A stretch of DNA of 64,000 bases. Origin: Elusimicrobiota bacterium. GTDB taxonomy: Bacteria > Elusimicrobiota > Elusimicrobia > UBA1565. Positions 10,864 to 26,026 of this stretch are shown here, in pieces (the stretch's first letter is position 1; every line of letters starts with the position of its first letter). The stretch lies in contig JBDRPD010000062.1 of assembly GCA_043827405.1 (NCBI GenBank), positions 73,933 to 137,932 of the forward strand, read 5' to 3'. The notes beneath the pieces are model-generated. The model was not told the DNA's origin and searched no databases. It worked only from the letters and a program-made list of their open reading frames with translations. The position numbers were made by a program, and so were the translations under genes.

Positions 10864-12231
10864 ATGCCCGATCAGCATGAATGCCGTTATCCGAACGGCA
10901 ATGTTCTCTACCGGAGGCTGAAAAAGACCTATCCCCGGATCGTCCGGGGCGAGGGGATCATGCTCTACGACGCGGAGGGCAAGGAGTATATTGACGCCTG
11001 CTCGGGAGCGTACGTCACCAATATCGGTCATGGCGTGCGCGAGGTCGCCGACGCGCTGTCGGCACAGGCTCGCCGCTTCGCCTACGTCAACGGTACGGCT
11101 TTCACCCACGACGCGGCCGAAGAAGCCGCGTATGAGCTCGCCAAACGCTGTCCGCATGGTCTCGACAAGGTCTTCCTGCTGCTCAGCGGCTCCGATGCCG
11201 TGGAGGCGGCGCTCAAGACCGCCCGCCAGTACTGGGCCGCGCTGGGCAAGCCCGAGAAGAAGAAGCTCTTTGCCCTGACGCCGAGTTATCACGGCAGCGG
11301 CCTGTTGGCGCTGTCCGTTTCCGGCCGGCCGGAGTATCAGAAGACCTACCAGGACTGGATCGTGGATGTGGTGCGGGGCCCGGCGCCGTATCCCTACCGC
11401 TGCCTGTGCCGCGGCAAGGATCCGGTCTGCCCCTCCTGCACGGGCACCGGCATCGAAAAAAGGATTCTGGAGGAAGGGCCGGAAAAAGTCGCCGCGATCA
11501 TCATCGAGCCGATCGGGGGCTCCTCGACCGGCTGTTCCGTGCCCCGTCTTGAGTTCCTGCGCAACCTGCGCGCTTTCTGCGACAAGTACGACGTGCTGTT
11601 GATCGCCGACGAGGTGCTGACCGGCGCCGGACGCACCGGGACCTGGTCGGCGCTCGAGCACTACGGCGTGGTCGCCGACCTGCTGGTCTTCGGCAAAGGC
11701 ATTACCGGCGGCTATGCGCCGCTCTCGGCGCTGGTGACTTCGGAAAAGATCGCCGACGTCTTCGCGCGCAGCAGCGGCAGCCTGCCGCATAATCAGACTT
11801 TCTCGCACTTCTCCGTCTCCTGCGCCGCCTGCGTCGCGGCGCTGGCGTACCTCAAGGAGCATGGGCTCATCGAGCGCTGCGCACGGATGGGAGAGAAGCT
11901 GCAGGAAAAGCTGCAGATCCTGCGCGAGCACCCGAATGTCGGCGACGTTCGCGGCAAGGGCTTGCTGGCGGGCGTGGAGTTCGTGGAAGACCGGGAGTCC
12001 CGGATGCCGTTCGAGCGGCGGCGGCGCTGCGCGGAAACGTTCGCGCAGCTGGCGCAGGATATGGGGCTGGTGGTCTGGCCGAACTACGGACAGGCGGACG
12101 GGGTCAACGGGGACCTCGCGATGCTGGCGCCGCCGTTTACGGTCACGGAGAGCGAGCTCGACCGCATCATCGATTTATTCCGGGGCGCGCTCAAAGCGAC
12201 GCTTAATTCCATGCGCAAGGACGCGGCATAG
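10864..12231 (+). CDS. Class III PLP aminotransferase, YodT/BioA-like subgroup
   Basis: RGEGIMLYD, IDACSG, SGSDAVE, SYHG, IADEVLTGAGRTG, FGKGITGGY (PLP lysine). Confidence 0.92.
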   Translation: MPDQHECRYPNGNVLYRRLKKTYPRIVRGEGIMLYDAEGKEYIDACSGAYVTNIGHGVREVADALSAQARRFAYVNGTAFTHDAAEEAAYELAKRCPHGLDKVFLLLSGSDAVEAALKTARQYWAALGKPEKKKLFALTPSYHGSGLLALSVSGRPEYQKTYQDWIVDVVRGPAPYPYRCLCRGKDPVCPSCTGTGIEKRILEEGPEKVAAIIIEPIGGSSTGCSVPRLEFLRNLRAFCDKYDVLLIADEVLTGAGRTGTWSALEHYGVVADLLVFGKGITGGYAPLSALVTSEKIADVFARSSGSLPHNQTFSHFSVSCAACVAALAYLKEHGLIERCARMGEKLQEKLQILREHPNVGDVRGKGLLAGVEFVEDRESRMPFERRRRCAETFAQLAQDMGLVVWPNYGQADGVNGDLAMLAPPFTVTESELDRIIDLFRGALKATLNSMRKDAA

Positions 12232-12249
12232 TCCGCGGCGGAGGTTTTT

Positions 12250-13830
12250 ATGGCGACGGCAGCGAAGACGGACAAAATCACCTATACGTCGGCGAATGTC
12301 GACATGACGGAGTTCCATTTACAATTCGATAAAGCGCTGGCGAAGCTCCGCGCCGAGGCCGGCAGGAGCTACCCGCTTTATATCGGCGGCCGGGCGGTGG
12401 AAACGAAGAACGAGCCCGTGGTCGACGTTTCGCCGATCGATACTTCGCTGGTTCTCGGCCGGTTCGCCAGCGCCGGCCACGACGAGGTGGACGCCGCGAT
12501 CAGAAACGCCTACGGCGTGCGCAAGGAGTGGGAGCATACGCCCTGGCCGGAGCGCGTCAAGATTATGCGCCAGGCGGCGGCGCTGGTGCGCGAGCGCAAG
12601 TATGAGCTGGCCGCCCTCATGGGGCTTGAGGTCGGCAAGAATCGGATGGAGTGCATCGGCGACGCCGAGGAGTCGGCCGACCTCATCGATTACTACGCCC
12701 AGCAGATGGAAGACCACAAGGGCTACATCCAGGAGCTCAATAAGATTACGCCGATCGAAACCAATACCGATATCCTGCGGCCCTTCGGCGTCTTCGTCTG
12801 CGTCGCGCCCTTTAACTTCCCGCTGGCGCTGTCCTGCGGCATGTCGTCCGCCTGTCTGGTGGCCGGCAACGTCATCGTCTATAAGCCGTCAAAGGATACG
12901 CCATGGACGGGCCTGAAGCTCTACGAGATCTACCGCGACGCCGGCGTCCCCGCGGGCGCCTTTAACTTCATAACCGGCCGGGGCGCGGATATGGGCGATT
13001 CGCTGTGGCGGCATCCGCTGGTCGGCGGCATCGTTTTCACCGGCTCCAAGCAGGTCGGCATGCATATGTACCGGGAGTTCAGCAGCCGGTGGGTGAAGCC
13101 CTGCATGCTCGAGCTGGGCGGCAAGAACGCGACCGTGGTCATGGACTCGGCGGATCTCGACGCCGCGGCGGAGGGCATTATGAAGTCGGCCTGGGGGCTG
13201 CAGAACCAGAAGTGCAGCGCCTGCTCCCGGGTTTACGCCCACAAGAGCGTGGTGCAGGAGCTCACCGCCAAGATCATTGAGAGAACCCGGGCGATCAAGA
13301 TGGGGGATCCGACGGAGAAGGACGTCTACTTCGGCCCCGTCATCAACGGCAGCTCGATCAAAAAGTACGAGCAGGCCGTGGCGCAGGCCAAAAAGGACGG
13401 GGAGATTCTTATCGGCGGCGAGCGCCTTAAGGGCGGCGTCTTCGATAAAGGCAATTTCCTCGCGCCGACCATCGCCCGGCTTCCGCTGTCGAGCTCGCTG
13501 TTCATGGAGGAGCTGTTTGTGCCTTTTCTGGCTATCGGCGAGGTCGAGACGCTGGATCAGGCGCTCGAAGAATGCAATAAGGCCGAGTACGGCCTGACCT
13601 CCGGCATCTTCTCCAAGAACAAGGAGGAGGTCGAGCACTTCTTCGACATGATCGAGACCGGTGTGACCTATGCCAATAAGCGCACGGGGGCCACTACCGG
13701 CGCCTGGCCGGGCGCCCAGGCCTTCTGCGGCTGGAAGGGCTCGGGCTCGACCGGCAAGGGGGGGTGCGGCCCCTACTACGTCGCGCAGTTCATGCGCGAG
13801 CAATGCCGTACGGTTATCGAGGAGGTGTGA
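12250..13830 (+). CDS. Aldehyde dehydrogenase, pyrroline-5-carboxylate dehydrogenase (RocA)-like
   Basis: APFNFP, FTGS, ELGGKN, QKCSAC (catalytic Cys), EELFVP, GWKGSGSTGKGG; GGAGG RBS. Confidence 0.92.
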   Translation: MATAAKTDKITYTSANVDMTEFHLQFDKALAKLRAEAGRSYPLYIGGRAVETKNEPVVDVSPIDTSLVLGRFASAGHDEVDAAIRNAYGVRKEWEHTPWPERVKIMRQAAALVRERKYELAALMGLEVGKNRMECIGDAEESADLIDYYAQQMEDHKGYIQELNKITPIETNTDILRPFGVFVCVAPFNFPLALSCGMSSACLVAGNVIVYKPSKDTPWTGLKLYEIYRDAGVPAGAFNFITGRGADMGDSLWRHPLVGGIVFTGSKQVGMHMYREFSSRWVKPCMLELGGKNATVVMDSADLDAAAEGIMKSAWGLQNQKCSACSRVYAHKSVVQELTAKIIERTRAIKMGDPTEKDVYFGPVINGSSIKKYEQAVAQAKKDGEILIGGERLKGGVFDKGNFLAPTIARLPLSSSLFMEELFVPFLAIGEVETLDQALEECNKAEYGLTSGIFSKNKEEVEHFFDMIETGVTYANKRTGATTGAWPGAQAFCGWKGSGSTGKGGCGPYYVAQFMREQCRTVIEEV

Positions 13831-13831
13831 G

Positions 13832-15226
13832 ATGAAAACTAAAAAGAAGCCCCGGGCGAAGAAGAAAACCGGGCTGAAGCGGCCCGCGGCGTCCGCGCGC
13901 CGGGACTATCCCCGCATCGTCACGCCGCCTCCGGGTCCCAAGGCCCGGCAAATCATCGATATCGACGATCGCTATTCCTCGACGAGCTATATGAAAATCT
14001 ACCCGCTCGTCGTCTCGCACGGCGAAGGCTCGATGGTCGAGGACGTCGACGGCAACCGCTACATCGACTTCATGGCGGGCATCGCCGTGGCCACCACCGG
14101 CTATGCCCATCCCAAGGTCGTCGCCGCGGTGCGCGAGGCGGCCGGCAAGTTCTTCAGCATGTGCTCGACCGACTGGTACTACGAGAGCTTCGCGAAGCTG
14201 TGCGAGCGGCTCGCTCATCTCGCGCCCGGCGACAATAAGAAGCGTGTTTTCCTGACCAACTCGGGCGCCGAGGCGGTCGAGGGAGCGATCAAGCTGGCGC
14301 GCAACTCGACCAAGCGGACGGCCCTGATCGCCTTTCGCCGCGCTTTCCACGGCCGCACCTACGGCGCCATGAGCCTGACCTCGAGCAAGGTCGTGCAGCG
14401 CGCCTTCTTCATGCCGATGCTGCCGGGGGTGTATCACACCGACTACCCGGACCCGTACCGCGTTGTCTACGACCGCCGGCGCTTCAAGAACGTCTCGGAG
14501 TACTGCATCTGGCAGATTCATGAGGACCTGTTCCAGCGCCATGTGCTGCCGGAGAACGTGGCGGCCATCTTCATCGAGCCCATGCTCGGAGAGGGCGGCT
14601 ATGTGCTTCCCCCTAAGGAGTTCCTGGTCAGCCTGCGCAAGCTGTGCGACGAGTTCGGCATCCTGCTGGTCTTCGATGAGATTCAGTCCGGCGCCGGGCG
14701 CACCGGCCATATGTGGGCCGCCGACTACTACGGGGTCGAGCCGGACGTCCTGCTGACGGCCAAGGGGATCGCTTCGGGCATGCCCATCGGAGCGATCATC
14801 GCCAAGGAGTCGGTCATGAAGTGGAAGCCGGGTTCGCACGGCTCGACTTTCGGCGGCAACCCCGTCTGCTGCGCGGCGGCGCTCGCGACGCTCGATCTGC
14901 TCGAAGGCGGGCTGATGGAGAACGCGCGCCGGATGGGCGCGCGGTTGATGAAGGGGCTGGAGCGGCTGAAGAACAAGTTCACGATCATCGGCGACGTACG
15001 CGGCACCGGGCTCTTCATCGGCGTCGAGTTCGTCAAGAGCCGGCGTACCAAGGAGCCCGCGAAGTCCTTCGTCAACGAGCTCTACATGCGCGCTTTCCAC
15101 AAAGGCCTGCTGCTGCTGCCCTGCGGCGAGAGCGTGGTGCGCATCGCCCCGCCGCTGAACATCAGCGAGTATGATGTGGACAAGGGGCTCGAGATCCTCG
15201 AGAAATGTCTCGACGAGCTGACGTGA
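13832..15226 (+). CDS. Class III PLP aminotransferase, ornithine/lysine/GABA omega-aminotransferase-like
   Basis: PPGPKA, NSGAEAVE, AFHGRTYG, FDEIQSGAGRTG, TAKGIASG, HGSTFGGNP; GGAGG RBS before ATG 13832. Confidence 0.92.
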   Translation: MKTKKKPRAKKKTGLKRPAASARRDYPRIVTPPPGPKARQIIDIDDRYSSTSYMKIYPLVVSHGEGSMVEDVDGNRYIDFMAGIAVATTGYAHPKVVAAVREAAGKFFSMCSTDWYYESFAKLCERLAHLAPGDNKKRVFLTNSGAEAVEGAIKLARNSTKRTALIAFRRAFHGRTYGAMSLTSSKVVQRAFFMPMLPGVYHTDYPDPYRVVYDRRRFKNVSEYCIWQIHEDLFQRHVLPENVAAIFIEPMLGEGGYVLPPKEFLVSLRKLCDEFGILLVFDEIQSGAGRTGHMWAADYYGVEPDVLLTAKGIASGMPIGAIIAKESVMKWKPGSHGSTFGGNPVCCAAALATLDLLEGGLMENARRMGARLMKGLERLKNKFTIIGDVRGTGLFIGVEFVKSRRTKEPAKSFVNELYMRAFHKGLLLLPCGESVVRIAPPLNISEYDVDKGLEILEKCLDELT

Positions 15227-16131
15227 CGGGCAAGGTCGTCTCAATGCGGGAGGCCGTGGCCTCCTGCGTGCAGGACGGCGCGACGGTCGTCATCGAGGGG
15301 TTCACGCACCTCATCTGCTTCGCGGCGGCGCACGAGATCATCCGGCAGGGGCGGCGGGACCTGACCGTCTGCCGCCTGACGCCGGACCTCATCTACGACC
15401 AGTTGATCGGCGCGGGCTGCGTGAAGAAGCTGGTCTTCTCCTGGGCCGGCAATCCCGGCGCCGGCTCGCTGCATGCCTTCCGCCGGGCGCTGGAGGGCAA
15501 ATCCGATAAGCCTCTCGAGATCGAGGAGTACTCGCACTTCGGCATGGTCGCGCGCTTTCAGGCCGGTGCGGCCAACCTGCCGTTCTGGCCGCTGCGCAAC
15601 TTTATGGGCACCGATCTCCCCGTCGTCAACGACCGCATCAAGAGCGTGACCTGCCCGTTTACCGGCGAGGTCCTCGCCGCGGTGCCGGCGCTCAACCCCG
15701 ACGTGACCATCATCCACGCCCAGCGCGCCGACAAAAACGGGAACGCGCAGGTCTGGGGGCTGCTGGGGGTGCAGAAAGAAGCGGCCTTCGCCTCCAAGAA
15801 GGTGATCGTGGTCGTCGAGGAACTGGTTGACGAGCAGGTCGTGCGCTCCGATCCGAACCGGACCTTGATCCCGGGCGCCATCGTCAGCGCCGTGGTCGTT
15901 GAGCCTTTCGGCGCCCATCCTTCCTTCGCCCAAGGCTACTACGACCGCGACAACGCCTTCTACCTGTCGTGGGAGAAGATCGCGCGCGACCCCAAGGACT
16001 TCGCCAAGTACCTCGACGAGTTCGTCATGGGCGTCAGCGGCCGGGCCGAGTACATGGAAAAGCAGGAAGGGCTCGCCGCGCGGCTCAAGGCGGATCAGCG
16101 CGTCTGCGCCGGGGTGAACTATGGCTTCTGA
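15223..16131 (+). CDS. CoA-transferase subunit A (CatI/GctA family; 3-oxoadipate CoA-transferase-like)
   Basis: EGFTHLI, HEIIRQG, TPDLIYDQLIGAGC, FSWAGNPG; GTGA overlap with the upstream stop. Confidence 0.9.
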   Translation: MTGKVVSMREAVASCVQDGATVVIEGFTHLICFAAAHEIIRQGRRDLTVCRLTPDLIYDQLIGAGCVKKLVFSWAGNPGAGSLHAFRRALEGKSDKPLEIEEYSHFGMVARFQAGAANLPFWPLRNFMGTDLPVVNDRIKSVTCPFTGEVLAAVPALNPDVTIIHAQRADKNGNAQVWGLLGVQKEAAFASKKVIVVVEELVDEQVVRSDPNRTLIPGAIVSAVVVEPFGAHPSFAQGYYDRDNAFYLSWEKIARDPKDFAKYLDEFVMGVSGRAEYMEKQEGLAARLKADQRVCAGVNYGF

Positions 16132-16900
16132 GACTCTCGACTATACGCTGAGCGAGATGATGGCCGTGGTTTCGGCGCGGGAGCTCAAGGACGGCGAAGT
16201 GGTTTTCGTCGGCATCGGCCTGCCCAACTTGGCCTGCAATTTGGCGCGCGTGACGCATGCCCCCAATCTGACCTTGATCTACGAGTCCGGCGCCGTGGGC
16301 GCCGTGCCTGAGCGGCTGCCGGTCTCGATCGGCGATCCGGCCCTGGTGACGGGTTCGCTCATGGTGGCGACCATGCCCGATATTTTTCAGTATTTCCTGC
16401 AGGGCGGCAAGATCGACGCCGGATTCCTCGGCGGCGCCCAGATCGACCGCTGGGGGAATATCAATACCACGGTGATCGGGGACTACGCCAAGCCGAAGGT
16501 GCGCCTGCCGGGAAGCGGCGGCGCTCTTGAGATCGCCGTTCACTCGAAGCGGACGCTTATCATCAGCAAGTTGTCCAAGCGGGTGTTTCCGGAGGCGGTG
16601 GACTTCGTGACCAGCCCCGGCTACCGCTACCGCGGCAGGAGCCGCAAGGAGTTCGGCATGCCGGGCGCGGGACCGGTTAAGGTTATCACCGACAAGTGCA
16701 TTCTCGCAGCCGATCCGGAGTCCGGGGAGATGACGCTGTCCGCGCTTTATCCGGGGGTCGAAGCCGCGGAGGTTCGCGACAGCGTGGGCTGGGACCTTAA
16801 AGTCCGGCCGACGCTTGGCGGTGTCGAACCGCCGACCGCGGAAGAGCTGCGGCTGCTGCGCGAAGAGCTCGATCCCGATAAGCTTTTCCTCAAGGGCTGA
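16121..16900 (+). CDS. CoA-transferase subunit B (CatJ/GctB family)
   Basis: FVGIGLP, LIYESG (catalytic Glu), LQGGKIDAGFLGGAQIDRWGNINTTVIG, RLPGSGGA. Confidence 0.9.
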   Translation: MASETLDYTLSEMMAVVSARELKDGEVVFVGIGLPNLACNLARVTHAPNLTLIYESGAVGAVPERLPVSIGDPALVTGSLMVATMPDIFQYFLQGGKIDAGFLGGAQIDRWGNINTTVIGDYAKPKVRLPGSGGALEIAVHSKRTLIISKLSKRVFPEAVDFVTSPGYRYRGRSRKEFGMPGAGPVKVITDKCILAADPESGEMTLSALYPGVEAAEVRDSVGWDLKVRPTLGGVEPPTAEELRLLREELDPDKLFLKG

Positions 16901-16905
16901 GCCGC

Positions 16906-17502
16906 GTGACGCGCAACGTCTACGTCTTTCGTCACGGCGAGACGGATTGGAATGCCGAGCGGCGGCTGCAGGGGCATTCCGACGTGAAGCTCAATGCCGC
17001 CGGCCGCGAGCAGGCCCGGGACCTGGCCAAGCTTCTGCGCCCCCTGGACCTCCCAGCGGTGCTGTGCTCCGATTTATCGCGTGCGGCGGAGACCGCGCGC
17101 ATCGTCTTTTCTGACGCCCCGGAGCTGATCCAATACAAGCGCGAGCTCCGGGAAGCCTATCTCGGCAAGCTGCAGGGTACGCTGCGCAGCGAGTATGAAC
17201 GTGTTCACGGCAAGGAGCAGTTCTCCCGCTGGCTGTCGGTGAAGGACGAGGATCAGGATTTCTGCTTTCCCGGGGGCGAGACCAAGCTGCAGCATCTTGC
17301 GCGGGTGCGGACCTGCCTCGAGTCCTACCTCGCCGTTCACGACTTCGCGCGGATCGGCGTCTGCACTCACGGCGGGACCATCCGGCGCTTCGTCCATTTT
17401 GTCCGGGGGTCCGGCGCCGAGCCCGTATCCATCGCCAACTGCGCGGTCTACCACCTGAAATACGACGGTGTTCGCTGGGCTTACGTCGGGAAGCTGTCCT
17501 GA
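16906..17502 (+). CDS. Histidine phosphatase (phosphoglycerate mutase-like) family protein
   Basis: FRHGETDWN, SDLSRA, LRE, FPGGET, THGG. Confidence 0.88.
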   Translation: MTRNVYVFRHGETDWNAERRLQGHSDVKLNAAGREQARDLAKLLRPLDLPAVLCSDLSRAAETARIVFSDAPELIQYKRELREAYLGKLQGTLRSEYERVHGKEQFSRWLSVKDEDQDFCFPGGETKLQHLARVRTCLESYLAVHDFARIGVCTHGGTIRRFVHFVRGSGAEPVSIANCAVYHLKYDGVRWAYVGKLS

Positions 17503-17504
17503 AA

Positions 17505-18332
17505 TTAGTTGAAAACGACGTTCTTTTGGAAACGGCTCTTGAGGATCGCGCCTTGCGCCGGGTAGTTTTTAAGTTCGCGGTCGAGTTCCTGCAGCCGCTG
17601 CGCCAGCGGCGGGTGGCGGCTGTCAAAAGAACCCTTGCTGGGCGCGTGCTCGCCGCCGTAGAGGCGCTTGAGCGCCGCCGGCAGGCCGTCCGGGTGATAG
17701 CCGCTCGCCGCCAGTATCCCCAGCCCCTTATGATCGGACGCGGTTTCCTGCTGGCGGGAATAGCCCTTGTCGGCGATGTACTCGACGGCGAGCTCGGCGA
17801 GCCGGTGGGCGCCGCCGCCGCCATTGAGCTTCTCCAATCCCAATCCCGCGCCCTTCATTACGCGGATCCCTTGGATGGCATGCTTGTCGTCGACGTGTAC
17901 GATTTCATGCGCCAGCACGCCGGCGAGCTGGGCTTCGTTGCCCAAGCGCTGCAGCAGGCCCCGGGTTACAAAGACATAGCCGCCGGGAGCGGCATAGGCG
18001 TTGACTGAGCGGGAGTTCAGGATGCCGAAATGATAGGTCATGCCGCCGCGTTTCGCCTTGCGGATCAGCGTGTTCCCTACCAGGCCGACATAGCGCGTCA
18101 GCGCGTCGTCTTCGTAGATGCCGAAGCGGCCGATGAGCCGGGCGGCGACCTCGCGGCCGAGCTCCCTCTCGCTTTCCGGCGTCAGGTGAAACTCGGCGGC
18201 GATTTCCGCGCCCTTCTGCAGATACTTCTCCCCTTTACGGCCGAGCTCCTTGAGCTCATACTTGCGCTCAGCGCGGGAAGGGGCGAGTCCGGCAAGCAGC
18301 AGGGCGGCGGAGAGAACGGCGGCGCGCCTCAA
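17505..18332 (-). CDS. M48-family zinc metallopeptidase, exported
   Basis: Signal peptide; NAYAAPGG, LAHEIVH (HExxH), YSRQQE.ASD, SRHPP. Confidence 0.9.
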   Translation of the reverse strand: MRRAAVLSAALLLAGLAPSRAERKYELKELGRKGEKYLQKGAEIAAEFHLTPESERELGREVAARLIGRFGIYEDDALTRYVGLVGNTLIRKAKRGGMTYHFGILNSRSVNAYAAPGGYVFVTRGLLQRLGNEAQLAGVLAHEIVHVDDKHAIQGIRVMKGAGLGLEKLNGGGGAHRLAELAVEYIADKGYSRQQETASDHKGLGILAASGYHPDGLPAALKRLYGGEHAPSKGSFDSRHPPLAQRLQELDRELKNYPAQGAILKSRFQKNVVFN

Positions 18333-20305
18333 AGCATTTTCTCTTGCTCGAAGATGCGGGCGTCCTCCCAGAAGATAAAGGCGCCAAAGAGCAGAAAGAG
18401 CAGGCCCAGCGGCAGCAGCGCGCCGGTCCCCTGCAGCCGCTCTCGCAGCTTGGCGAAGGGCTGTTCGCTCATGCGTCGGAAGGCGGATTTTTTCTTCTCA
18501 GCAGCGGCCGCGGTCTTGGCGGCGGCGGCGGTCGCGCTCATCTCTACCGCGATCCCGTCGGAGGACATCATCTGGTCGACGGCCTCGCTGCGCTGCTGCT
18601 GCGCCGCGACGGGCCGGGCGCCGTCTTTCTGCTGCTTGTCCATTTCCGGCTGGTAGTTCGCGGCGGCGGCGAAAAAAAGCGCGGCAGCGCCGCAGAGGAC
18701 GAAGAAAAAGGTGCGGATAGGGACGGCCTCTTCGGGATGGGTGCTGCGGTTCTTGAACAGCGCCAGGAAGTAGAAACATGCGCCGGCCAAGGCCAGGACA
18801 GGAGCCCGTTGATGGCGGGCTTGTGCGTCAAGCAGGACGCGCCAGGTGAGGCTGTCGGGAAGGCCGAACTGAAAGGCGGCGGCGGCCGACAGCGCCGAGA
18901 ACAAGAGCACTCCGACGATCGTCAGCCGGCTCTTGCGCGACTGGGAGGCCAGGCGCACCGTCATGAGAAAGCCGAATACGGACAGCGGCAGGAATATCGC
19001 GCGGCCGGCCGCGGCCAAGGACTCCGGCGTGGGCGGTGCGCCTTGGATGCCGGCGAAATACAGCTGCGCGACGCCGAGACTCAGCAGGGCGAGCGAGACG
19101 ACGCCGAGACCGGCGGGAGCGGCGCCCGCCGAAGCGAGGGTCAAGAGGACCGGGGCGCTCAGGTAGACCAGGTCCTTCATCCCGGCGAAGACGGCGCTGG
19201 CGCCCGTCGCGAGCCACAGCACGGCGGAGACCAGCGGCTTCCAGCTGACGGGATTAAGCGCATGCGGATCGTCAGGATCATCGATCTCTTGGAAAGTTTC
19301 GCCGGGAGAATCCGCCGGCGGCAGCGGGGTGCGTAAAGTCGGCGTCATGCCGCCCGGGTTGGGCGCGGGGATCGGTACCGCCGCTCCTTCCACGTGCGTG
19401 GGAGACGGACGCTTGCCGGGCGTTATGATGCCGAGGTCGATGACTTGGCCGCCGGTCATCATTTCGTTGGCGTCGCCGACGACCATGCCCGGGGAGTTGA
19501 GCGCCTGCAGAAGTTCCGTTACGTCCTTGTAGCGCTCCGCCGGCTTCTTGGCCATCATCTTCATGATGACCTCGGCGGCCATGGTGCTCACGTCGGGATG
19601 AACCGAGCGGGCATCCGGTACCGGATTATTGCAGTGCATGGCCACGATATCCTGCGGCGTCGGGCCCATAAACGGCGGCTGCCCCGTGATCATGTGAAAA
19701 TAGGTCGCGCCCATAGCGTAGATATCGCAGCGGCCATCCACCGCCTGGCCGTATATCTGCTCCGGCGCCATGTAGAGCGGCGTGCCGATAACTTCGGCGG
19801 CCTGGGCTTTGCCCGCAGGGTCCGTCTTGAGCGCCAAGCCGAAGTCGGCGAGGCGGATAGCGCCGTCTTTGGCCAGCAGGATGTTGGAGGGTTTGATGTC
19901 GCGGTGGACGATGCCGTGCTTATGCGCTTCCTGCAGCCCTTCGAGCGAGGCTTTGATGATCTGCAGGCAGCGCAGCGGTTCGATCTTGCCCGAACGTCCG
20001 AGCAGGTCCTCGGCGGTCTCACCGTCGACGAACTGCATGACGATGTAGTTGAGGTTGTTCTCCGCTCCCACGTCGTAGACCTGGGTGATGCGGGGATGTT
20101 CGAGGCGCGCCGCCGCCCGCGCTTCCAGCTGGAAGGATTCCACCGCGCCCGGACGGGCGGCGACTTTGGGATAAAGGAACTTGATGACGACGACGCGATC
20201 GAGGCGGACATGATGGGCCTGGTAGGCGACGCCCATGCCGCCCTCGCCAAGCTTCTTGAGGATTTGGCAGCCGCCGACTGTTTTGCCAATCATGGGATCG
20301 GGCAT
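18329..20305 (-). CDS. Hanks-type Ser/Thr protein kinase with a multi-pass membrane C-terminus
   Basis: LGEGGMG, VIK, HRDIKPSN, DFG, YMAPE; Pro-rich linker; several hydrophobic helices in the C-terminal half. Confidence 0.92.
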   Translation of the reverse strand: MPDPMIGKTVGGCQILKKLGEGGMGVAYQAHHVRLDRVVVIKFLYPKVAARPGAVESFQLEARAAARLEHPRITQVYDVGAENNLNYIVMQFVDGETAEDLLGRSGKIEPLRCLQIIKASLEGLQEAHKHGIVHRDIKPSNILLAKDGAIRLADFGLALKTDPAGKAQAAEVIGTPLYMAPEQIYGQAVDGRCDIYAMGATYFHMITGQPPFMGPTPQDIVAMHCNNPVPDARSVHPDVSTMAAEVIMKMMAKKPAERYKDVTELLQALNSPGMVVGDANEMMTGGQVIDLGIITPGKRPSPTHVEGAAVPIPAPNPGGMTPTLRTPLPPADSPGETFQEIDDPDDPHALNPVSWKPLVSAVLWLATGASAVFAGMKDLVYLSAPVLLTLASAGAAPAGLGVVSLALLSLGVAQLYFAGIQGAPPTPESLAAAGRAIFLPLSVFGFLMTVRLASQSRKSRLTIVGVLLFSALSAAAAFQFGLPDSLTWRVLLDAQARHQRAPVLALAGACFYFLALFKNRSTHPEEAVPIRTFFFVLCGAAALFFAAAANYQPEMDKQQKDGARPVAAQQQRSEAVDQMMSSDGIAVEMSATAAAAKTAAAAEKKKSAFRRMSEQPFAKLRERLQGTGALLPLGLLFLLFGAFIFWEDARIFEQEKML

Positions 20306-20373
20306 AATCGATTAAGTATGAGAATAGCAGTACATTTAGCTGTTGGCAAGTCATCATTTGCTAAAATGAGCAC

Positions 20374-21732
20374 ATGAAAAAAGCGGCACGCACGAGCAAA
20401 ATGAAAGCGCAGGTTTCCGAACAGCCCTTCAAATATCCCATCGCCAAGCCCTTCGCGGAGCCGGACTGGCGTCGTTTTGCGGTCTGGAAGGATGCTTCAC
20501 GCGCGGACTGGGAGAGCGCGCTGTGGCAGCGGCGCCATTCGATCAAGAACCTCAAGGAGTTCAAGACCGCGTTCGGCGAGCATCTCGCGGACGATCTGCT
20601 GGCCGACATCGACCGGGATCAGCAGCAGTTCGCGACCATGTCGATGCTGATCCCTCCGCAGATGATCAACACCATGGATGAGAAGGATCTGCGCGCAGAT
20701 CCCGTCCGCCGCTATATGGCGCCCGCCGCCAGCGAGCGCCATCCCGAGTGGTCGAATCACCCCAAGGCTTCGCGCGACAGCCTGCACGAAGCCGACATGT
20801 GGGCCGTCGAAGGACTGACGCACCGCTATCCGACCAAGGTGCTGGCCGAACTGCTGCCGACCTGCCCGCAGTACTGCGGGCACTGCACGCGGATGGACTT
20901 GGTGGGCAATAATACGCCGCAGGTGCAGAAGGTCGGCTTCGCCATGAAACCGAAGGAGCGCTACGCGGCGATTCTCGACTACCTGCGCCGGACGAAGTCG
21001 GTGCGCGACGTCGTCATCTCCGGGGGAGATATCGCGAACCTGCCCATTCAGGTGCTCGAGCCGTTCGTAAACTCGGTCATGGAACTCCCCAATGTCCGGG
21101 ATGTCCGGCTTGCAACCAAGGGCCTGATGGGGCTGCCGCAGCACTTCCTGCAGGATGAGGTGCTTAAAGGCTTCGAGCGCATCGCCAAGAAGGCGCATGA
21201 ATGCGGCGTCGAAATCGCCGTCCATACGCACGTCAACAGCGCGCGTCAGCTGACCCCGCTGGTCGCTAAAGCCGTGCGTAAGCTCCTGGATATGGGCTAC
21301 CGCGACGTGCGCAACCAGGGGGTGCTGATGCGCGGCGTCAACGCGACCGCGAAGGATCTGCTGGAGCTGTGCTTCACTTTGCTCGACCATGCCAAGATCA
21401 TGCCGTACTACTTCTACATGTGCGACATCATCCCCAACTCCGAGCATTGGCGCCTCGCCGTATGGGAGGCGCAGCAGCTGCAGCATGACATCATGGGCTA
21501 TCTCCCGGGCTTCGCGACCCCGCGTATCGTCTGCGACGTGCCGTTTGTCGGGAAGCGCTGGGTTCAGCAGTGCGGCGGCTATGACCGGGAAAAAGGAATA
21601 TCCTGCTGGACCAAGAACTACCGCACCAGCATTGAGGCGGACGATCCCGATGCGCTGACGCGCAAGTATGAGTATTTCGATCCGATCTATACGCTGCCGC
21701 CCGCCGGACAGGAATACTGGAGCAAGCAATAG
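20374..21732 (+). CDS. kamA: KamA-family radical SAM/PLP aminomutase (probable lysine 2,3-aminomutase)
   Basis: GLTHRYPTK, CPQYCGHCTR (CxxxCxxC), VISGGD, HTHVN, NQGVLMRGVN, PYYFYMCD; start may be ATG 20401. Confidence 0.88.
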   Translation: MKKAARTSKMKAQVSEQPFKYPIAKPFAEPDWRRFAVWKDASRADWESALWQRRHSIKNLKEFKTAFGEHLADDLLADIDRDQQQFATMSMLIPPQMINTMDEKDLRADPVRRYMAPAASERHPEWSNHPKASRDSLHEADMWAVEGLTHRYPTKVLAELLPTCPQYCGHCTRMDLVGNNTPQVQKVGFAMKPKERYAAILDYLRRTKSVRDVVISGGDIANLPIQVLEPFVNSVMELPNVRDVRLATKGLMGLPQHFLQDEVLKGFERIAKKAHECGVEIAVHTHVNSARQLTPLVAKAVRKLLDMGYRDVRNQGVLMRGVNATAKDLLELCFTLLDHAKIMPYYFYMCDIIPNSEHWRLAVWEAQQLQHDIMGYLPGFATPRIVCDVPFVGKRWVQQCGGYDREKGISCWTKNYRTSIEADDPDALTRKYEYFDPIYTLPPAGQEYWSKQ

Positions 21733-21736
21733 GTTA

Positions 21737-21925
21737 ATGTTTTACCGGATGCCGAAAGGCGACGGCGCGTTTCTCGCCGGGCTCTTGGTCTTTTCCGCCT
21801 TGGCCTTTCTCATTCCGGCGCTGCGCACCGCCAAGTTTGCGGGCGTCGCATATTTCGGCTGGTGGATGGCCGCCCTGATGTTTCTGGGACCGCTGTGGGC
21901 GCTGCTGCGGATGCTTAAGAAATGA
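21737..21925 (+). CDS. Small two-TM membrane protein, probable symporter accessory subunit
   Basis: MFYRMPKGDGAFLAGLLVFS...; ATGA overlap with the symporter start. Confidence 0.7.
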   Translation: MFYRMPKGDGAFLAGLLVFSALAFLIPALRTAKFAGVAYFGWWMAALMFLGPLWALLRMLKK

Positions 21926-23346
21926 GCGTCGAAGCGGTCCTGGTCGTTCTCTATCTCGCGTGCTGCATCGCTATCGGCGTCTATTTCGCGCGTCAAGGCC
22001 TGTCCTCGCAGGAGGAATACTGGGTCGCGGGGCGCAATATCGGCGTCGCCGCCAATGCCATGGCGATCATGGCGAGCCTGGCCAGCGGCGGCTCGATCAT
22101 CGGCGTCATGGGCCTGGCCTACGCCTACGGCATCCCGTATACGCTGTCGCTGTTCGCCGGAGCGATTTTGGGATTTCCCATGGCCGCGGTGCTCGTCGCC
22201 GGGCCGCTGCGTAAGTTCGGGGGCTTCACGCTGTCCGATTTCCTGTCCTACCGCTACCCGCACGCCGCCGTGCGCTGGCTGGTCCCGCTGTTTGTCGTCT
22301 TCGCCTTCACCGTCTACATCATCGCGCAGATGAAGGCCGCCGGCATCACGGCGGAGGTCCTGCTGGGACTGCCCTACAAGCCGGCGGTGACGGCGGCGGC
22401 GATCGTCTTCATCCTCTATGTGTCGATCGGAGGCATGCTGGCGGTTACCTGGACCGATATCGTCCAGGGGTCGCTGATGCTTTGCGTCGTGCTGGGTACG
22501 GTCTGCGCGCTGATGGTGAAGCAGGGCGCGCCGCTCGCCCTGCTGGAGCGGGCGACGGCGGCGGCGCCGGAGCTCGGTGAGATGACGGATGCGCCGCTGT
22601 CGAGCCTGCTGGGAATTTTCGTGCTGTGGGCCGCCGCCATTCCGGTGATTCCGCATATCGTCATGCGGGTGTTCACCGCGAAGGATCCGCGGGGAGCGCG
22701 GCTGTCGCTGAACCTGGCGATGATCGCCTACAGCGCTATGATCCTCGGCGCTGTTTTCATCATCGTCCCGGTCGGCAAGATGATGTTCCCCGATCTCGCG
22801 GACCAGGACCGCGTCTTCCTCATGGTCATGCAGAGCGAGTTCCCTCCGGTGGTGCGCGGCCTCGCGATCGCCGCGGTCATGGCCGCCGTCATGTCCACGA
22901 CCGACGCCCTGCTGCTGGCCTGCAGTGCGGCCGTCACCCATGACCTTCTCGGCCCTTGGCTCGAGCGGTCCTCTCCCCGGGCGCGCAAGTGGGTTACGGT
23001 CGCCGTGCCGTGGGCCATCGGCCTGGCCGCGATGTGGCTGGCCTATTCGCCGCCCGCGGTCATCACCAAGTTCTACTCCGGCGCTATCGGCTTGCTGAGC
23101 GCCAGCCTGTTCGTCCCGCTGATCGCCGGCCTATGGTGGAAGCGGGCCAATACCTTGGGCGGCGTGCTGTCATTGTGCGCCGGAGCCGCGGTCTACCTCG
23201 TCGTTCAGTACGGGACGAGCGCGCCCGCGTTCTCCGCGGTCCTATACGCGCTGGGGGCGAGCGCTGCCGGCATGGGGGTCGGCGGCCGGCTGGGCGTCGT
23301 GTCCGCACCCGCCATCCTCGCGCGCATCGACGAGCTGCACGGGTAG
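21922..23346 (+). CDS. Sodium:solute symporter (SSS) family protein
   Basis: EYWVAGR, GGMLAVTWTD, PHIVMR, AAVMSTTD; about 13 TM helices. Confidence 0.92.
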   Translation: MSVEAVLVVLYLACCIAIGVYFARQGLSSQEEYWVAGRNIGVAANAMAIMASLASGGSIIGVMGLAYAYGIPYTLSLFAGAILGFPMAAVLVAGPLRKFGGFTLSDFLSYRYPHAAVRWLVPLFVVFAFTVYIIAQMKAAGITAEVLLGLPYKPAVTAAAIVFILYVSIGGMLAVTWTDIVQGSLMLCVVLGTVCALMVKQGAPLALLERATAAAPELGEMTDAPLSSLLGIFVLWAAAIPVIPHIVMRVFTAKDPRGARLSLNLAMIAYSAMILGAVFIIVPVGKMMFPDLADQDRVFLMVMQSEFPPVVRGLAIAAVMAAVMSTTDALLLACSAAVTHDLLGPWLERSSPRARKWVTVAVPWAIGLAAMWLAYSPPAVITKFYSGAIGLLSASLFVPLIAGLWWKRANTLGGVLSLCAGAAVYLVVQYGTSAPAFSAVLYALGASAAGMGVGGRLGVVSAPAILARIDELHG

Positions 23347-23891: not shown

Positions 23892-23951
23892 ATGGGCATC
23901 GTACCACATTTACTTGAAGAGTTCTCTGATGACTGCTATCCTCATTGGCGT

Positions 23952-25004
23952 ATGAGCAAGCCGCAGACTCCGCGTCCGTCGCGCGGCCGGCCGGATCCCC
24001 GGCCGATCGACTGGGAGCAGGTAACCGACGAGGAGCTCCTCGCCAAGCGCATCTGCGACCTTCCGCTCAAGATCGAGGGGACGGTCCTGGAAGAGTGGGT
24101 ACGGACCGTCTACCGGGAACTGGAGACGAAAGGGATAGGGTTTCACCCCGAGGTCTATTTGGGCGACGAGTGGTTCTCTCCCGAAGGTGATCCCATTATC
24201 AGCATCCCGTACTACTTGGCGCATCCGCGGCTCATCAAGCTGGAACGCAGCCGCGTGCTGGAAGCCGAGGGTGAATCGCGGGAGTGGTTTCTTAAGCTGC
24301 TGCGTCACGAGATGGGCCATGCTTTGTCGCATGCATACGGTCTCGGTCGCAGTAAGGGCTACCGCAGCGTTTTCGGCGACCCCGCGCAGGAGTACCCGGA
24401 CGGCTTCCGTCCCCGGCCGTACAGCCGGAAGTACGTGCAGCATCTTTTCGACTGGTACGCGCAGCTTCATCCGGACGAGGACTACGCGGAGACTTTCGCG
24501 GTTTGGCTGACCCCGGACAAGGACTGGCGCCGGGAATATGCGTCCTGGCCGGCGCTGCGGAAGCTGGAGTTCGTCGACCGTCTGATGGGCGGCATCCGCG
24601 GACGGCGGCCCAAGAAGAGCCGCGCGCCGAAGTGGCGGCACCTGCGCTCGATCCGCATGACGATCGCCTATTCGCACAAGCTCAAGCGCCGGGCGATGGA
24701 GGAGGACTTTCCCGACTACTTCGACCGGGATCTGCTGGCTATCTTCGCAAGCGGGGGGGAAGCCGAAAAAGCCGGCTGCTTTCTGCGCCGGCACCGCAAG
24801 GAGCTGGTGCGCAGCATCGCGCAGTGGACGCTGGCGAAGAAATATACGGTCAATGAGCTCGTCACGCGGCTCGCCGAGCGCGCCGACGAGCTTGCGCTGC
24901 GCGTCGCGCGGCCGGAGCTTACGACGCTGACCCGGGTGAGCGTCTGCCTGACGGCGATGGCCAAGAACTACTTCCTGACCGGCAAATTCAAGAGGCGCGT
25001 CTGA
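23952..25004 (+). CDS. Putative zinc-binding metallopeptidase (Peptidase_Mx-like)
   Basis: LRHEMGHA (HExxH), YAQLHPDEDYAETFAVWL. Confidence 0.82.
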   Translation: MSKPQTPRPSRGRPDPRPIDWEQVTDEELLAKRICDLPLKIEGTVLEEWVRTVYRELETKGIGFHPEVYLGDEWFSPEGDPIISIPYYLAHPRLIKLERSRVLEAEGESREWFLKLLRHEMGHALSHAYGLGRSKGYRSVFGDPAQEYPDGFRPRPYSRKYVQHLFDWYAQLHPDEDYAETFAVWLTPDKDWRREYASWPALRKLEFVDRLMGGIRGRRPKKSRAPKWRHLRSIRMTIAYSHKLKRRAMEEDFPDYFDRDLLAIFASGGEAEKAGCFLRRHRKELVRSIAQWTLAKKYTVNELVTRLAERADELALRVARPELTTLTRVSVCLTAMAKNYFLTGKFKRRV

Positions 25005-26026
25005 TGGGAAAATCACTGAAGGTTTTGGCGCTCTTTGACGTGGGCGAACCGGTTGAACGCGGCCATGACTTCTCCGAGGATTTCAAGCTGCCGGCGTGGA
25101 AGTCGGAAGCGCATGTGTTCCGAGGACTTAAGAGTCTCGGCCATGAAGTGCGCGCGCTGGGGCTCCACGACGATCTGCATCAGCTGGTCGATGAAATTAA
25201 GGACTTCCGGCCCGATGTCGTCTTCAACTTGATGGAAGAGTTCAATAAGGAAGCCAGCATGGTGCCCAATGTCGTGGCCGTCCTGGAGATGCTGCAGGTG
25301 CCTTACACCGGCGCCTCGCCGATGGGGCTGCGGCTGTGCAAAGACAAGGCGCTGACCAAAACCATCCTGACCCAGCAGGGCATCAGCAATCCGCCGTTTC
25401 AGGTTTTCGATCGGGACAAAATCGTCAAGAAGGCGGGCGGTCTGAACTATCCGCTCGTCCTCAAGCCGATGGTCGATGACGCCTCTTACGGCATCCATCA
25501 GACCTCGGTCGTCTACGACGACGAGCAGCTCGCCGAGCGGGCGAAGCTTATCCATGAAAAGGGCCAGGACGCTCTGGCCGAGGAGTACGTGAAGGGCCGT
25601 GAGCTCTATGTGAGCGTGCTCGGGACCAAACGGCTGCGCGTTTTTCCCATCCGCGAGGTGCGCTTCGGCCGGCTCGCGGACGACACCGCCGAGCCCGTAG
25701 CCTCCTACAAGGTAAAGTGGGACAAGAGCTACCGGCGCAAATGGAACATCACCTACGGCTACGCCAGCGATTTGGACGAGGCGCTCACTGCGCGCATCCA
25801 GGATATGGCGCGGGCGGCCTTTCGGGCGCTGCACCTGACGGGCTACGCCCGCGTGGACATGCGGCTGACTCCCGACAACGAACCCGCTATCCTCGAGGTC
25901 AATCCCAACCCCTATATCGCCAAGGATGAGGATTTCGCCCAGTCGGCGAAGAAGGGGGGGCGGTCCTGGAAGCAGCTGCTGCAGGCGATCATCAACGAGG
26001 CGCTGTCGCTGCCGGATGACGAGTAG
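25004..26026 (+). CDS. ATP-grasp amide ligase, Ddl-like but non-canonical
   Basis: PDVVFNL, VPYTG, DKALTK, KP...ASYGI, EEYVKGRE, YARVDMR, EVNPNP. Confidence 0.88.
   Translation: MGKSLKVLALFDVGEPVERGHDFSEDFKLPAWKSEAHVFRGLKSLGHEVRALGLHDDLHQLVDEIKDFRPDVVFNLMEEFNKEASMVPNVVAVLEMLQVPYTGASPMGLRLCKDKALTKTILTQQGISNPPFQVFDRDKIVKKAGGLNYPLVLKPMVDDASYGIHQTSVVYDDEQLAERAKLIHEKGQDALAEEYVKGRELYVSVLGTKRLRVFPIREVRFGRLADDTAEPVASYKVKWDKSYRRKWNITYGYASDLDEALTARIQDMARAAFRALHLTGYARVDMRLTPDNEPAILEVNPNPYIAKDEDFAQSAKKGGRSWKQLLQAIINEALSLPDDE

Follow-up and report, generated by a model that had tools for sequence, protein, structure and literature searches.

What is the function of a tightly packed set of aminotransferase, aldehyde dehydrogenase (ALDH) and CoA-transferase genes that lies upstream of a KamA-like aminomutase gene? 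We analysed a window of 64,000 nucleotides, the whole stretch of DNA considered here, from an Elusimicrobiota genome that is 98% complete (GCA_043827405.1, contig JBDRPD010000062.1; genome G000 below). A sequence-only reading of the window had proposed that the operon takes beta-lysine through 3-aminoadipate to 3-oxoadipyl-CoA, and the comparisons reported here support that predicted role. The packed operon that it described was found with every gene on the plus strand (Table 1), the gaps from AT1 through the phosphatase being 18, 1, -4, -11 and 5 bases in order. AT2 starts at a genuine ATG at 13832, and the listed reading frame from 13670 is an over-extension.

Table 1. Positions in the window of the operon genes and the genes downstream of them
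Gene	Position	Strand	Basis
AT1, class III aminotransferase	10864..12231	+	Pfam PF00202; near PRK07483/PRK06917
P5CDH-like ALDH, separate subfamily	12250..13830	+	PRK03137 421<648; best PDB matches are P5CDHs
AT2, PRK05769-family omega-aminotransferase	13832..15226	+	PRK05769 599>552
CtA, CoA-transferase alpha subunit, CatI/GctA type	15223..16131	+	PF01144
CtB, CoA-transferase beta subunit, CatJ/GctB type	16121..16900	+	PF01144
Histidine phosphatase, co-operonic in G000	16906..17502	+	PF00300
M48 peptidase, outside pathway	17505..18332	-	
Membrane Ser/Thr kinase, outside pathway	18329..20305	-	
KamA-like, divergent radical-SAM/PLP aminomutase	20401..21732	+	Sole PDB match 2A5H
Small gene, 62 aa	21737..21925	+	
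SSS (sodium:solute) symporter	21922..23346	+	PF00474

The KamA-like gene and the symporter do lie downstream on the same strand, as had been noted, but two genes on the minus strand intervene, so the operon and kamA are separate transcription units in G000. In G001 and G010 neither of these genes intervenes, and AT1-ALDH-AT2-CtA-CtB-KamA are contiguous. The sequence-only reading was not upheld on two of its members. No orthologue of the phosphatase was present in the comparison loci examined for it (best match 29%), and it is probably outside the pathway. The symporter is not a core part. Close homologues of it and of the 62-aa gene were limited to G002 (71%) and the metagenome locus L058 (58%); APC permeases occupy its place in other clusters. 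These two genes are a candidate importer of accessory standing.

The KamA-like protein scored below the cut-offs of both the lysine 2,3-aminomutase equivalog TIGR03820 (178 bits against 525) and TIGR00238 (170 against 199). The gene read as "kamA" is of a divergent type. In an alignment to 2A5H, the CxxxCxxC motif and the equivalents of the PLP lysine K337 and of R134, D293 and D330 are present, and the R/D/D/K set is retained in all 36 full-length matches at 55% identity or more. The D293 and D330 equivalents are presumably the aspartates that bind the side-chain amine of lysine. The protein is 58.6% identical to the aminomutase of a vioC/vioD/NRPS (streptothricin-type) cluster, and the same type lies near kamC/D/E in G039. 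It is strongly inferred from these residues and neighbours to be a lysine 2,3-aminomutase that would convert lysine to beta-lysine. Two other roles were ruled out: EF-P lysylation, as EpmA was nowhere above cut-off in G000, and osmolyte synthesis as the general role, as the acetyltransferase AblB was above cut-off in just 2 of 60 relatives. In G000, the protein may serve osmolyte synthesis as a side function.

AT2 was expected to resemble ornithine/lysine omega-aminotransferases, and this was borne out. It passes the PRK05769 cut-off, and its best PDB match is 7VNO, which we take to be PH1423, an Orn/Lys aminotransferase. Positions matching Asp93, the FHGR Arg and the Glu/Arg pair of PH1423 are invariant in 56/56 close matches, and the Thr92 position is T, S or A among them. 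We propose that AT2 may be a beta-lysine epsilon-transaminase.

The ALDH had been read as P5CDH-like, and P5CDHs are indeed its best relatives by PDB match and its nearest fold, yet it forms a separate subfamily. It missed all the P5CDH cut-offs (PRK03137, TIGR01236/7) and scored 268 against a cut-off of 730 for the P6C dehydrogenase model. Equivalents of E137, F185, K321, C322 and S323 are conserved. Relative to canonical P5CDH, its anchor loop carries a 3-residue insertion, observed in every aligned match of at least 43% identity and in neither match below 43%; this loop, residues 471-513, has pLDDT below 50 in the AlphaFold model. Databases label the subfamily P5C dehydrogenase. Our proposal is a putative 3-aminoadipate-semialdehyde (pyrroline-5-acetate) dehydrogenase. 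The wider subfamily is spread over many unrelated gene contexts. A distant subgroup has ProDH and ProC two to three genes upstream and HDAC-family genes after AT1, neighbours that, judging by synteny, are probably the actinobacterial backbone.

AT1 scored below cut-off for both PRK07483 (405 against 485) and PRK06917 (401 against 535). Its suggested resemblance to YodT, itself uncharacterised (PMC6522883), stands at the family level but goes no closer: AT1 is 32% identical to the Bacillaceae yod-cluster orthologue (Cytobacillus locus), which scored 627 against PRK06917. AT1 and its relatives formed their own clade in a quick aminotransferase tree, its best solved relatives are omega-amine transaminases, and the ESM Atlas returned generic aminotransferase clusters. 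A role as 3-aminoadipate beta-transaminase is proposed.

The CatI/CatJ resemblance of the CoA-transferase is probable, with CtA 58% and CtB 50% identical to a S. meliloti pair located between pcaR and pcaF. A haloarchaeal gene from a non-pca context is also 55% identical to the CoA-transferase, and the best solved relative of CtAB is GctAB (GctA 1POI matches CtA at E 1e-42). The catalytic Glu equivalent to GctB E54 is conserved in CtB in the alignment to 1POI_B. The operon's CoA-transferase genes grouped by themselves with weak support (FastTree, 25 of 58 matches). The thiolase that the proposal requires, absent from the window, was located elsewhere in G000 (C7). It is 55% identical to S. meliloti pcaF and falls below the TIGR02430 PcaF cut-off (522 against 597), which is still its best family.

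Linkage was evaluated in 60 relatives, which are kin, not independent data points. A relative with AT1 or ALDH was considered a carrier, giving 52 carriers and 8 non-carriers; co-occurrence counts were based on whole-genome searches, and the presence of AT2 in other genomes was read from fetched loci. AT1 orthologues were found in 50/60 relatives and the ALDH in 48/60. The same divergent KamA was present in 47 of the 52 carriers, on the operon's contig and at most 31 kb away in 25 of these 47 and on another contig in 22. The PcaF-like thiolase tracks the module (49/52 carriers, 1/8 non-carriers), and in its separate locus it could be a general thiolase. KamD, searched with PF09043, was found in none of the 52 carriers and in 4 of the 8 non-carriers, the latter two lineages only, and its exclusion may reflect lifestyle. 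The combination that the sequence-only reading had suggested checking, the module with kamA and a PcaF-like thiolase in genomes lacking KamD, was thus observed. In G000 itself, no match to a kamD, kce, kdd pathway that might explain kamA was found anywhere in the genome. The lack of aromatic-degradation genes near the CoA-transferase extends genome-wide to PaaA and intradiol dioxygenase (ring cleavage).

The sequence-only reading had staked its proposal on operon and kamA occurring together elsewhere, and they co-occur and co-localise in three phyla. In Gemmatimonadota, this KamA type was observed in 4/101 genomes, beside AT2 and/or CtAB in all four. A Myxococcota cluster (G177) holds KamA, AT2, a fused ScoAB, a PcaF-like thiolase, AT1 and ALDH. 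Three Myxococcota have a saccharopine-dehydrogenase-family gene before the ALDH, which points to a lysine-derived C6 semialdehyde. A D. radiodurans cluster combines a classical KamA with AT2-family and P5CDH-family enzymes, and on a Rhizobium plasmid a KamA and this ALDH type occur together with HDAC, GNAT and an AT1-like enzyme. KamA adjacency is missing in most carriers outside the source order, 12 of 15 Gemmatimonadota genomes with the ALDH are without this KamA type, G093 of that phylum has a complete operon and no KamA match, and any KamA was nearby in just 1/80 metagenome loci. A scan of GTDB by the ALDH pattern alone gave 5 loci, too few for co-occurrence. Partial operons were also seen: G052 has no ALDH and no PcaF-like match, G012 has AT1-CtAB alone, and G017, 98% complete, has no ALDH match. 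CatIJ-type genes are missing in 20/52 carriers. At two loci, L065 and G177, PcaI/J-family and PcaF-like genes replace the CatIJ-type transferase, those of L065 standing together with a PcaR-like gene immediately after AT1-ALDH-AT2. A ScoAB fallback transferase is present in 54/60 relatives and for that reason proves little.

Based on these sequence comparisons, we give a probability of about 0.6 to a B12-free pathway from lysine to succinyl-CoA and acetyl-CoA, the intermediates and order of which we infer. The divergent KamA would convert L-lysine to beta-lysine, the most strongly indicated step, and AT2 would then take off the epsilon-amino group. The resulting 3-aminoadipate semialdehyde, in presumed equilibrium with the five-membered imine pyrroline-5-acetate, would be oxidised by the ALDH to 3-aminoadipate. 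AT1 would transaminate the beta-amino group to give 3-oxoadipate, the weakest step. The CatIJ-type transferase, or a PcaI/J-ScoAB-type enzyme where it is missing, would form 3-oxoadipyl-CoA, and the PcaF-like thiolase would cleave it. Oxidising C6 first would be the equivalent of N6-acetylation in the acetylated route considered below, keeping the 3-oxo product from cyclising. A lysine-to-3-oxoadipate route through beta-lysine and 3-aminoadipate was not found in published literature. At slightly better than even odds, this is an undescribed, modular, B12-independent route that oxidises beta-lysine at C6 to 3-aminoadipate and passes it to 3-oxoadipate enzymes familiar from aromatic breakdown, serving as the main lysine route in this order, with parts swapped in Gemmatimonadota, Myxococcota and perhaps Deinococcus.

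Of the competing explanations, the one that survives best, although unlikely, has AT2 and the ALDH act on L-lysine itself, like LAT and PCD, to give 2-aminoadipate, with an aminomutase or other enzyme then producing 3-aminoadipate, or with AT1-CtAB serving another beta-amino acid. PH1423 and TK2101 accept L-Lys, according to a table in PMC9986279. In five Myxococcota the partner of the ALDH is either AT2 by itself or a gene of the saccharopine/lysine-6-dehydrogenase family, and an AT1 orthologue is lacking; these five also encode Asp/Asp KamAs, compatible with the beta-lysine route, and three of them join another class III aminotransferase to ScoAB, which fits that route too. Against this reading, the KamA of G000 retains both aspartates presumed to hold the lysine side-chain amine, and the company its type keeps in the streptothricin-type cluster and near kamC/D/E argues in the same direction.

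A different order between the same ends, with AT1 acting on 3-aminoadipyl-CoA, like Kat, or on beta-lysine before C6 oxidation, seems quite unlikely. GctAB/CatIJ-type transferases accept dicarboxylates without a 3-oxo group, and the retention of AT1 and CtAB without the ALDH in G012 and G052 would suit this order. Kat is active on thioesters only (PMC3149608); however, Kat is HemL-like and AT1 is nearest PRK07483/06917. A 3-oxoacid transferase of the PcaI/J family is found in L065 and G177, and on chemical grounds free 6-amino-3-oxohexanoate should cyclise and decarboxylate.

Marginally less credible again is an acetylated route, in which AT1 converts N6-acetyl-beta-lysine to 6-acetamido-3-oxohexanoate, CoA transfer, thiolysis and deacetylation give GABA, and AT2 and the ALDH take GABA to succinate. 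The reported absence of beta-lysine acetyltransferase and deacetylase genes holds within the window but not for the genome: at C15, outside the window, an AblB-family beta-lysine acetyltransferase above cut-off sits beside a histone-deacetylase-family gene and an SSS transporter, unlinked to the operon. The YodT-like AT1, the Rhizobium plasmid and the HDAC-family genes of the distant subgroup also agree with acetylation. Yet AblB, the acetyltransferase family searched, was above cut-off in 1/52 carriers and gave a match in 0/80 metagenome loci, the ALDH is P5CDH-like rather than GabD-like, and GABA is listed as no more than a poor substrate of PH1423 (PMC9986279).

It is very unlikely that the operon handles diamines and omega-amino acids, with AT1 on cadaverine or putrescine, ALDH and AT2 leading via 5-aminovalerate to glutarate, CtAB as glutarate CoA-transferase and kamA a neighbour by shared regulation. 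The best solved relatives of AT1 and CtAB fit this, as do demethylase-type genes before AT1-ALDH in L058 and in the G177 cluster, but replacement by PcaI/J-family and PcaF-like genes is unsuited to glutarate and the recurrent KamA linkage would be left unexplained. A decarboxylase of the PF01276 fold, the fold searched, is absent from G000, and by the single glutaryl-CoA dehydrogenase model that scored, no such enzyme was above cut-off there. Ornithine/proline catabolism, with AT2 as ornithine aminotransferase and the ALDH as P5C dehydrogenase, draws on the nearest characterised relatives (PH1423 and P5CDH), the conserved ALDH residues and the ProDH and ProC of the distant subgroup, but is highly improbable, as further genes of G000 score above cut-off as OAT and P5CDH and ProDH is absent from it, the anchor-loop insertion is conserved, and AT1, CtAB and KamA go unaccounted for.

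If the beta-lysine route is correct, it would add three new activities: a beta-lysine epsilon-transaminase, a pyrroline-5-acetate dehydrogenase with the anchor-loop insertion and a 3-aminoadipate transaminase. It would be a third fate of beta-lysine, after the B12 aminomutase and acetylated routes, and a non-aromatic source for 3-oxoadipate enzymes, which bears on annotation because CatIJ- and PcaF-like genes are taken as signs of aromatic degradation. It would also provide natural enzymes leading from lysine as far as 3-oxoadipate, one step from adipate; enzymes deaminating beta-lysine, lysine or 2-aminoadipate toward adipic acid are described as wanted and not known in PMC7241714.

Lysine fermentation (KamA, KamDE, Kdd, Kce, Kal or Kat), present in four relatives without the module, shares the lysine 2,3-aminomutase start and an ending by thiolysis-type C-C cleavage. 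In contrast, G000 is without the B12 5,6-aminomutase, Kdd and Kce; C6 is proposed to be oxidised rather than migrated, and the products would be succinyl-CoA and acetyl-CoA. Acetylated beta-lysine is the intermediate of the N6-acetyl-beta-lysine route of Pseudomonas B4. The Bacillaceae yodT-yodS-yodR-yodQ-ablB-kamA cluster (Cytobacillus locus) likewise combines KamA with a class III aminotransferase related to AT1 and with a CoA-transferase of two subunits, but has AblB and a peptidase-annotated gene, no ALDH and no second aminotransferase, and its transferase is of the 3-oxoacid ScoAB type. With the lower beta-ketoadipate pathway (CatIJ/PcaIJ, PcaF, PcaR) the operon shares its transferase and thiolase relatives in S. 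meliloti pcaIJF; the proposed route differs in being fed by aminotransferases, in a genome without the ring-cleavage genes searched and with a thiolase under the PcaF cut-off. Finally, OAT with P5C dehydrogenase, and LAT or lysine 6-dehydrogenase with P6C dehydrogenase, share omega-deamination, a cyclic imine and NAD-linked oxidation, while AT2 is PRK05769-type rather than RocD or LAT, the ALDH lies under the P5CDH and P6C dehydrogenase cut-offs, and its proposed product in the G000 operon is a beta-amino acid.

The packed five-gene operon with its phosphatase, as described in the sequence-only reading, proved real. Pfam and NCBIfam calls identified a class III aminotransferase (AT1), an aldehyde dehydrogenase (ALDH), a second class III aminotransferase (AT2), CoA-transferase subunits A and B (CtA, CtB), and a histidine phosphatase, separated by successive gaps of 18, 1, -4, -11, and 5 bases. 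Two minus-strand genes lie between the phosphatase and the KamA-like gene; downstream of the latter come a 62-aa gene and one for an SSS symporter. The contig, C62, belongs to a 4.33 Mb genome (G000) that is 98% complete. The earlier proposed route, from lysine to succinyl-CoA and acetyl-CoA, is the simplest reading with each conserved gene used once, and we put its probability at about 0.6. KamA would convert lysine to beta-lysine, which would become 3-aminoadipate semialdehyde (with a pyrroline-5-acetate form), then 3-aminoadipate, then 3-oxoadipate. A CatIJ- or PcaIJ-family transferase would yield 3-oxoadipyl-CoA, to be cleaved by a PcaF-like thiolase.

The start (KamA) and end (CatIJ or PcaIJ family, PcaF-like) of the route rest on several independent lines, and its middle steps are set mainly by carbon count and family functions. 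The only solved KamA relative found was 2A5H, and alignment to it indicates that KamA keeps equivalents of Arg134, Asp293, Asp330, and Lys337, as do 36 of 36 full-length close matches from overlapping, non-independent loci. We take these residues to be lysine-binding and different in glutamate aminomutase, roles on which the literature searched gave no paper. The window-type KamA is 58.6% identical to a Streptomyces sp. 2P-4 aminomutase beside vioC, vioD, NRPS, and carbamoyltransferase genes, a cluster read as streptothricin-type; beta-lysine is part of streptothricins. CtA and CtB are 58% and 50% identical to an S. meliloti pair located between pobA/pcaR and pcaF, in line with the suggested likeness to CatI/CatJ; S. 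meliloti pcaIJF has reportedly been characterised. AT2 exceeds the PRK05769 cut-off, and its closest structure is 7VNO, presumably PH1423. A table in PMC9986279 lists Orn and Lys as PH1423 substrates, with poor activity on GABA and 5-aminovalerate. The ALDH was rightly called P5C-dehydrogenase-like: P5CDHs are closest in sequence and fold, and catalytic and adjacent residues are kept. Its whole subfamily carries a three-residue insertion directly ahead of the anchor-loop Gly-Ala; in GSALDH this loop holds the distal carboxylate (PMC12398946). In a quick tree of 38 rows from chosen loci, AT1 orthologues form a clade within the group holding the yod-cluster enzyme and the S. meliloti PRK07483 enzyme, whose gene adjoins a Kce-family gene. 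The likeness to YodT is at group level only, with 32% identity between AT1 and the yod-cluster enzyme.

Among 60 same-order genomes, ALDH was found in 48, AT1 in 50, the window's divergent type of KamA in 49 (matches of at least 60%; classical KamA in three more), a CatI-type gene (at least 70%) in 32, a PcaI/ScoA-family gene in 54, a PcaF-like thiolase in 50, KamD in four, and AblB over cut-off in two. AT1 or ALDH was present in 52 genomes, the carriers. The operon does co-occur with kamA beyond the window: 47 of 52 carriers have same-type KamA. In 25 of these it shares the module's contig at a distance of up to 31 kb (up to 12 kb in 14), and in the other 22 it is on a different contig. The proposed check against a PcaF-like thiolase also came out positive (49/52 carriers vs 1/8 non-carriers), and this gene occupies its own conserved locus apart from the module in the 20 neighbourhoods examined among the 50. 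All 32 CatI-type genes occur in carriers, and the other 20 carriers all have a PcaI/ScoA-family gene. Two relatives show AT1-ALDH-AT2-CtA-CtB-KamA as one uninterrupted run (G001, G010), and G018 has AT1-ALDH-AT2-amino-acid permease-KamA. Partial modules occur in G052 (AT1-AT2-CtAB, ALDH missing) and G012 (AT1-CtAB only), and a genome search of G017 gave no ALDH match.

No full kamDE/kdd/kce pathway accounts for kamA anywhere in G000: a KamD profile that did match in four relatives, a Kce-family search, and tblastn with relatives' Kdd, Kce, KamD, and KamE all returned nothing. KamD occurs in 0/52 carriers vs 4/8 non-carriers, the latter from two genera; in G039, which lacks the module, kamC/D/E and a gene for a HemL-like aminotransferase are ~7 kb away from same-type KamA. 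The thiolase expected outside the window has a candidate in G000, with PcaF as best family (522 vs cut-off 597), and a stand-alone ScoAB pair is present. Searches of G000 found no PaaA or intradiol dioxygenase, and nothing over the EpmA cut-off.

An alpha-first route is unlikely, and a changed step order somewhat more so. An acetyl route, reportedly that of Pseudomonas B4, is improbable. AblB exceeds its cut-off in 1/52 carriers, and the picture of no acetyltransferase or deacetylase does not extend to the whole genome, given the C15 cluster (see table). Since AblB is rare among relatives, G000 may make or recycle N-acetyl-beta-lysine as an extra trait. A diamine-glutarate route is still more improbable; no PF01276 decarboxylase was found in G000. 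Plain ornithine/P5C catabolism is very improbable: apart from the module, G000 has an OAT (527 vs cut-off 378) and a P5CDH (772 vs 614), and no ProDH was found there.

In Gemmatimonadota (phylum of G062, named by locus L008), 15 of 101 genomes have the ALDH, and AT1, ALDH, AT2, CtA, and CtB were together in 12 of 13 fetched ALDH loci. Four of the 101 have same-type KamA, and in all four its neighbours are AT2 and/or CtAB plus a GntR-like regulator. Any KamA-family match was found in 13/15 ALDH genomes vs 35/86 others; unpublished G115 is among the 35 and enters no other result. The operon is present in G093, which gave no KamA match. In Myxococcota (phylum of G061, Kofleriaceae by L007), 7 of 151 genomes have the ALDH. 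One, G177, clusters KamA (69%), an MttB-like gene, AT2, demethylase-type genes, fused ScoAB, PcaF-like thiolase, AT1, and ALDH. A saccharopine-dehydrogenase-family gene, possibly a non-PLP substitute for AT2, precedes ALDH in G231, G236, and G276; in G275 and G296 ALDH is paired with AT2. Each of these five genomes carries Asp/Asp KamAs of other types and lacks an AT1 orthologue (36-40% at best in three, where a different class III aminotransferase is joined to ScoAB).

Among the best 80 of 594 confirmed metagenome stretches, 27 had ALDH of at least 55%, with AT1 in 20/22 having upstream room, AT2 in 19/21, and CoA-transferase in 11/12; the 53 more distant loci had AT2 in 21/47 and transferase in 12/26. 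Any KamA appeared in 1/80 of these loci and AblB in 0/80. The module also seems to run without adjacent KamA in many genomes, so its beta-lysine may be supplied by KamA enzymes of other types, come from outside, or derive from methylated or acetylated forms. The demethylase and flavoproteins beside AT1-ALDH in two loci (L058, L182) suggest that N-methylated lysine or beta-lysine may enter the same module. A Rhizobium plasmid cluster holds HDAC, GNAT, AT1-like, FAD oxidoreductase, module-type ALDH, and KamA genes.

Coordinates of features in the window, G000, and other loci
Location	Feature	Remarks
Window 5468-6811	Fusion of a response regulator receiver with a metallo-beta-lactamase/RNase Z-like domain	In several relatives (L026, L028, L029, L031), AT1 or CtA has related genes upstream
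Window 23892-26026	Peptidase_Mx and ligase-like pair	Just past SSS gene
G000 C15:14569-18097 (L125)	AblB-family acetyltransferase (over cut-off), histone-deacetylase-family gene, SSS transporter	One cluster
G000 C7:299-8392; L150-L169	PcaF-like thiolase, ~450-aa gene, thioesterase-like and GNAT-like genes	Conserved locus; second thiolase, divergent orientation
G033 C18:47443; G035 C114:8001; G040 C92:6890	ALDH match	One internal stop codon in each
L068:17160-20336; L129:15448-19395	Classical-type KamA with D-Ala-D-Ala-ligase-like genes	Gemmatimonadota
L178:8909-11670; L180:9168-11979	Saccharopine-dehydrogenase-family gene immediately before ALDH	Three Myxococcota genomes
L058:1-11569; L182:5675-9989	AT1-ALDH directly accompanied by a GcvT-like demethylase and amine-oxidase-like flavoproteins	In L058, behind SSS 58% identical to window's SSS
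L074, L078, L114	Distant version ALDH-AT2-CtA-CtB-AT1 between ProDH-ProC and HDAC-family gene	Divergent FAH-family gene
L171:4199-11018	CoA transferase, classical KamA, AT2-family and P5CDH-family cluster	D. radiodurans NZ_OV024759.1, cultured model organism

The literature searched, whose scope left aside most subscription journals, gave no description of a lysine -> beta-lysine -> 3-aminoadipate -> 3-oxoadipate route, and the four papers mentioning 3-aminoadipate included none on this pathway as judged by title and abstract start. Locus L065 reads AT1-ALDH-AT2-PcaR-like-PcaI-PcaJ-PcaF-like (267 vs cut-off 285, 239 vs 129, 250 vs 244, and 542 vs 597 for the last four), and in both Deinococcus radiodurans and D. 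wulumuqiensis, genes for a CoA transferase and classical KamA are clustered with those for an AT2-family enzyme (49-50%) and a canonical-loop P5CDH-family enzyme. The system in this operon, probably undescribed so far, is a real and conserved variant of beta-lysine catabolism made of known enzyme families.
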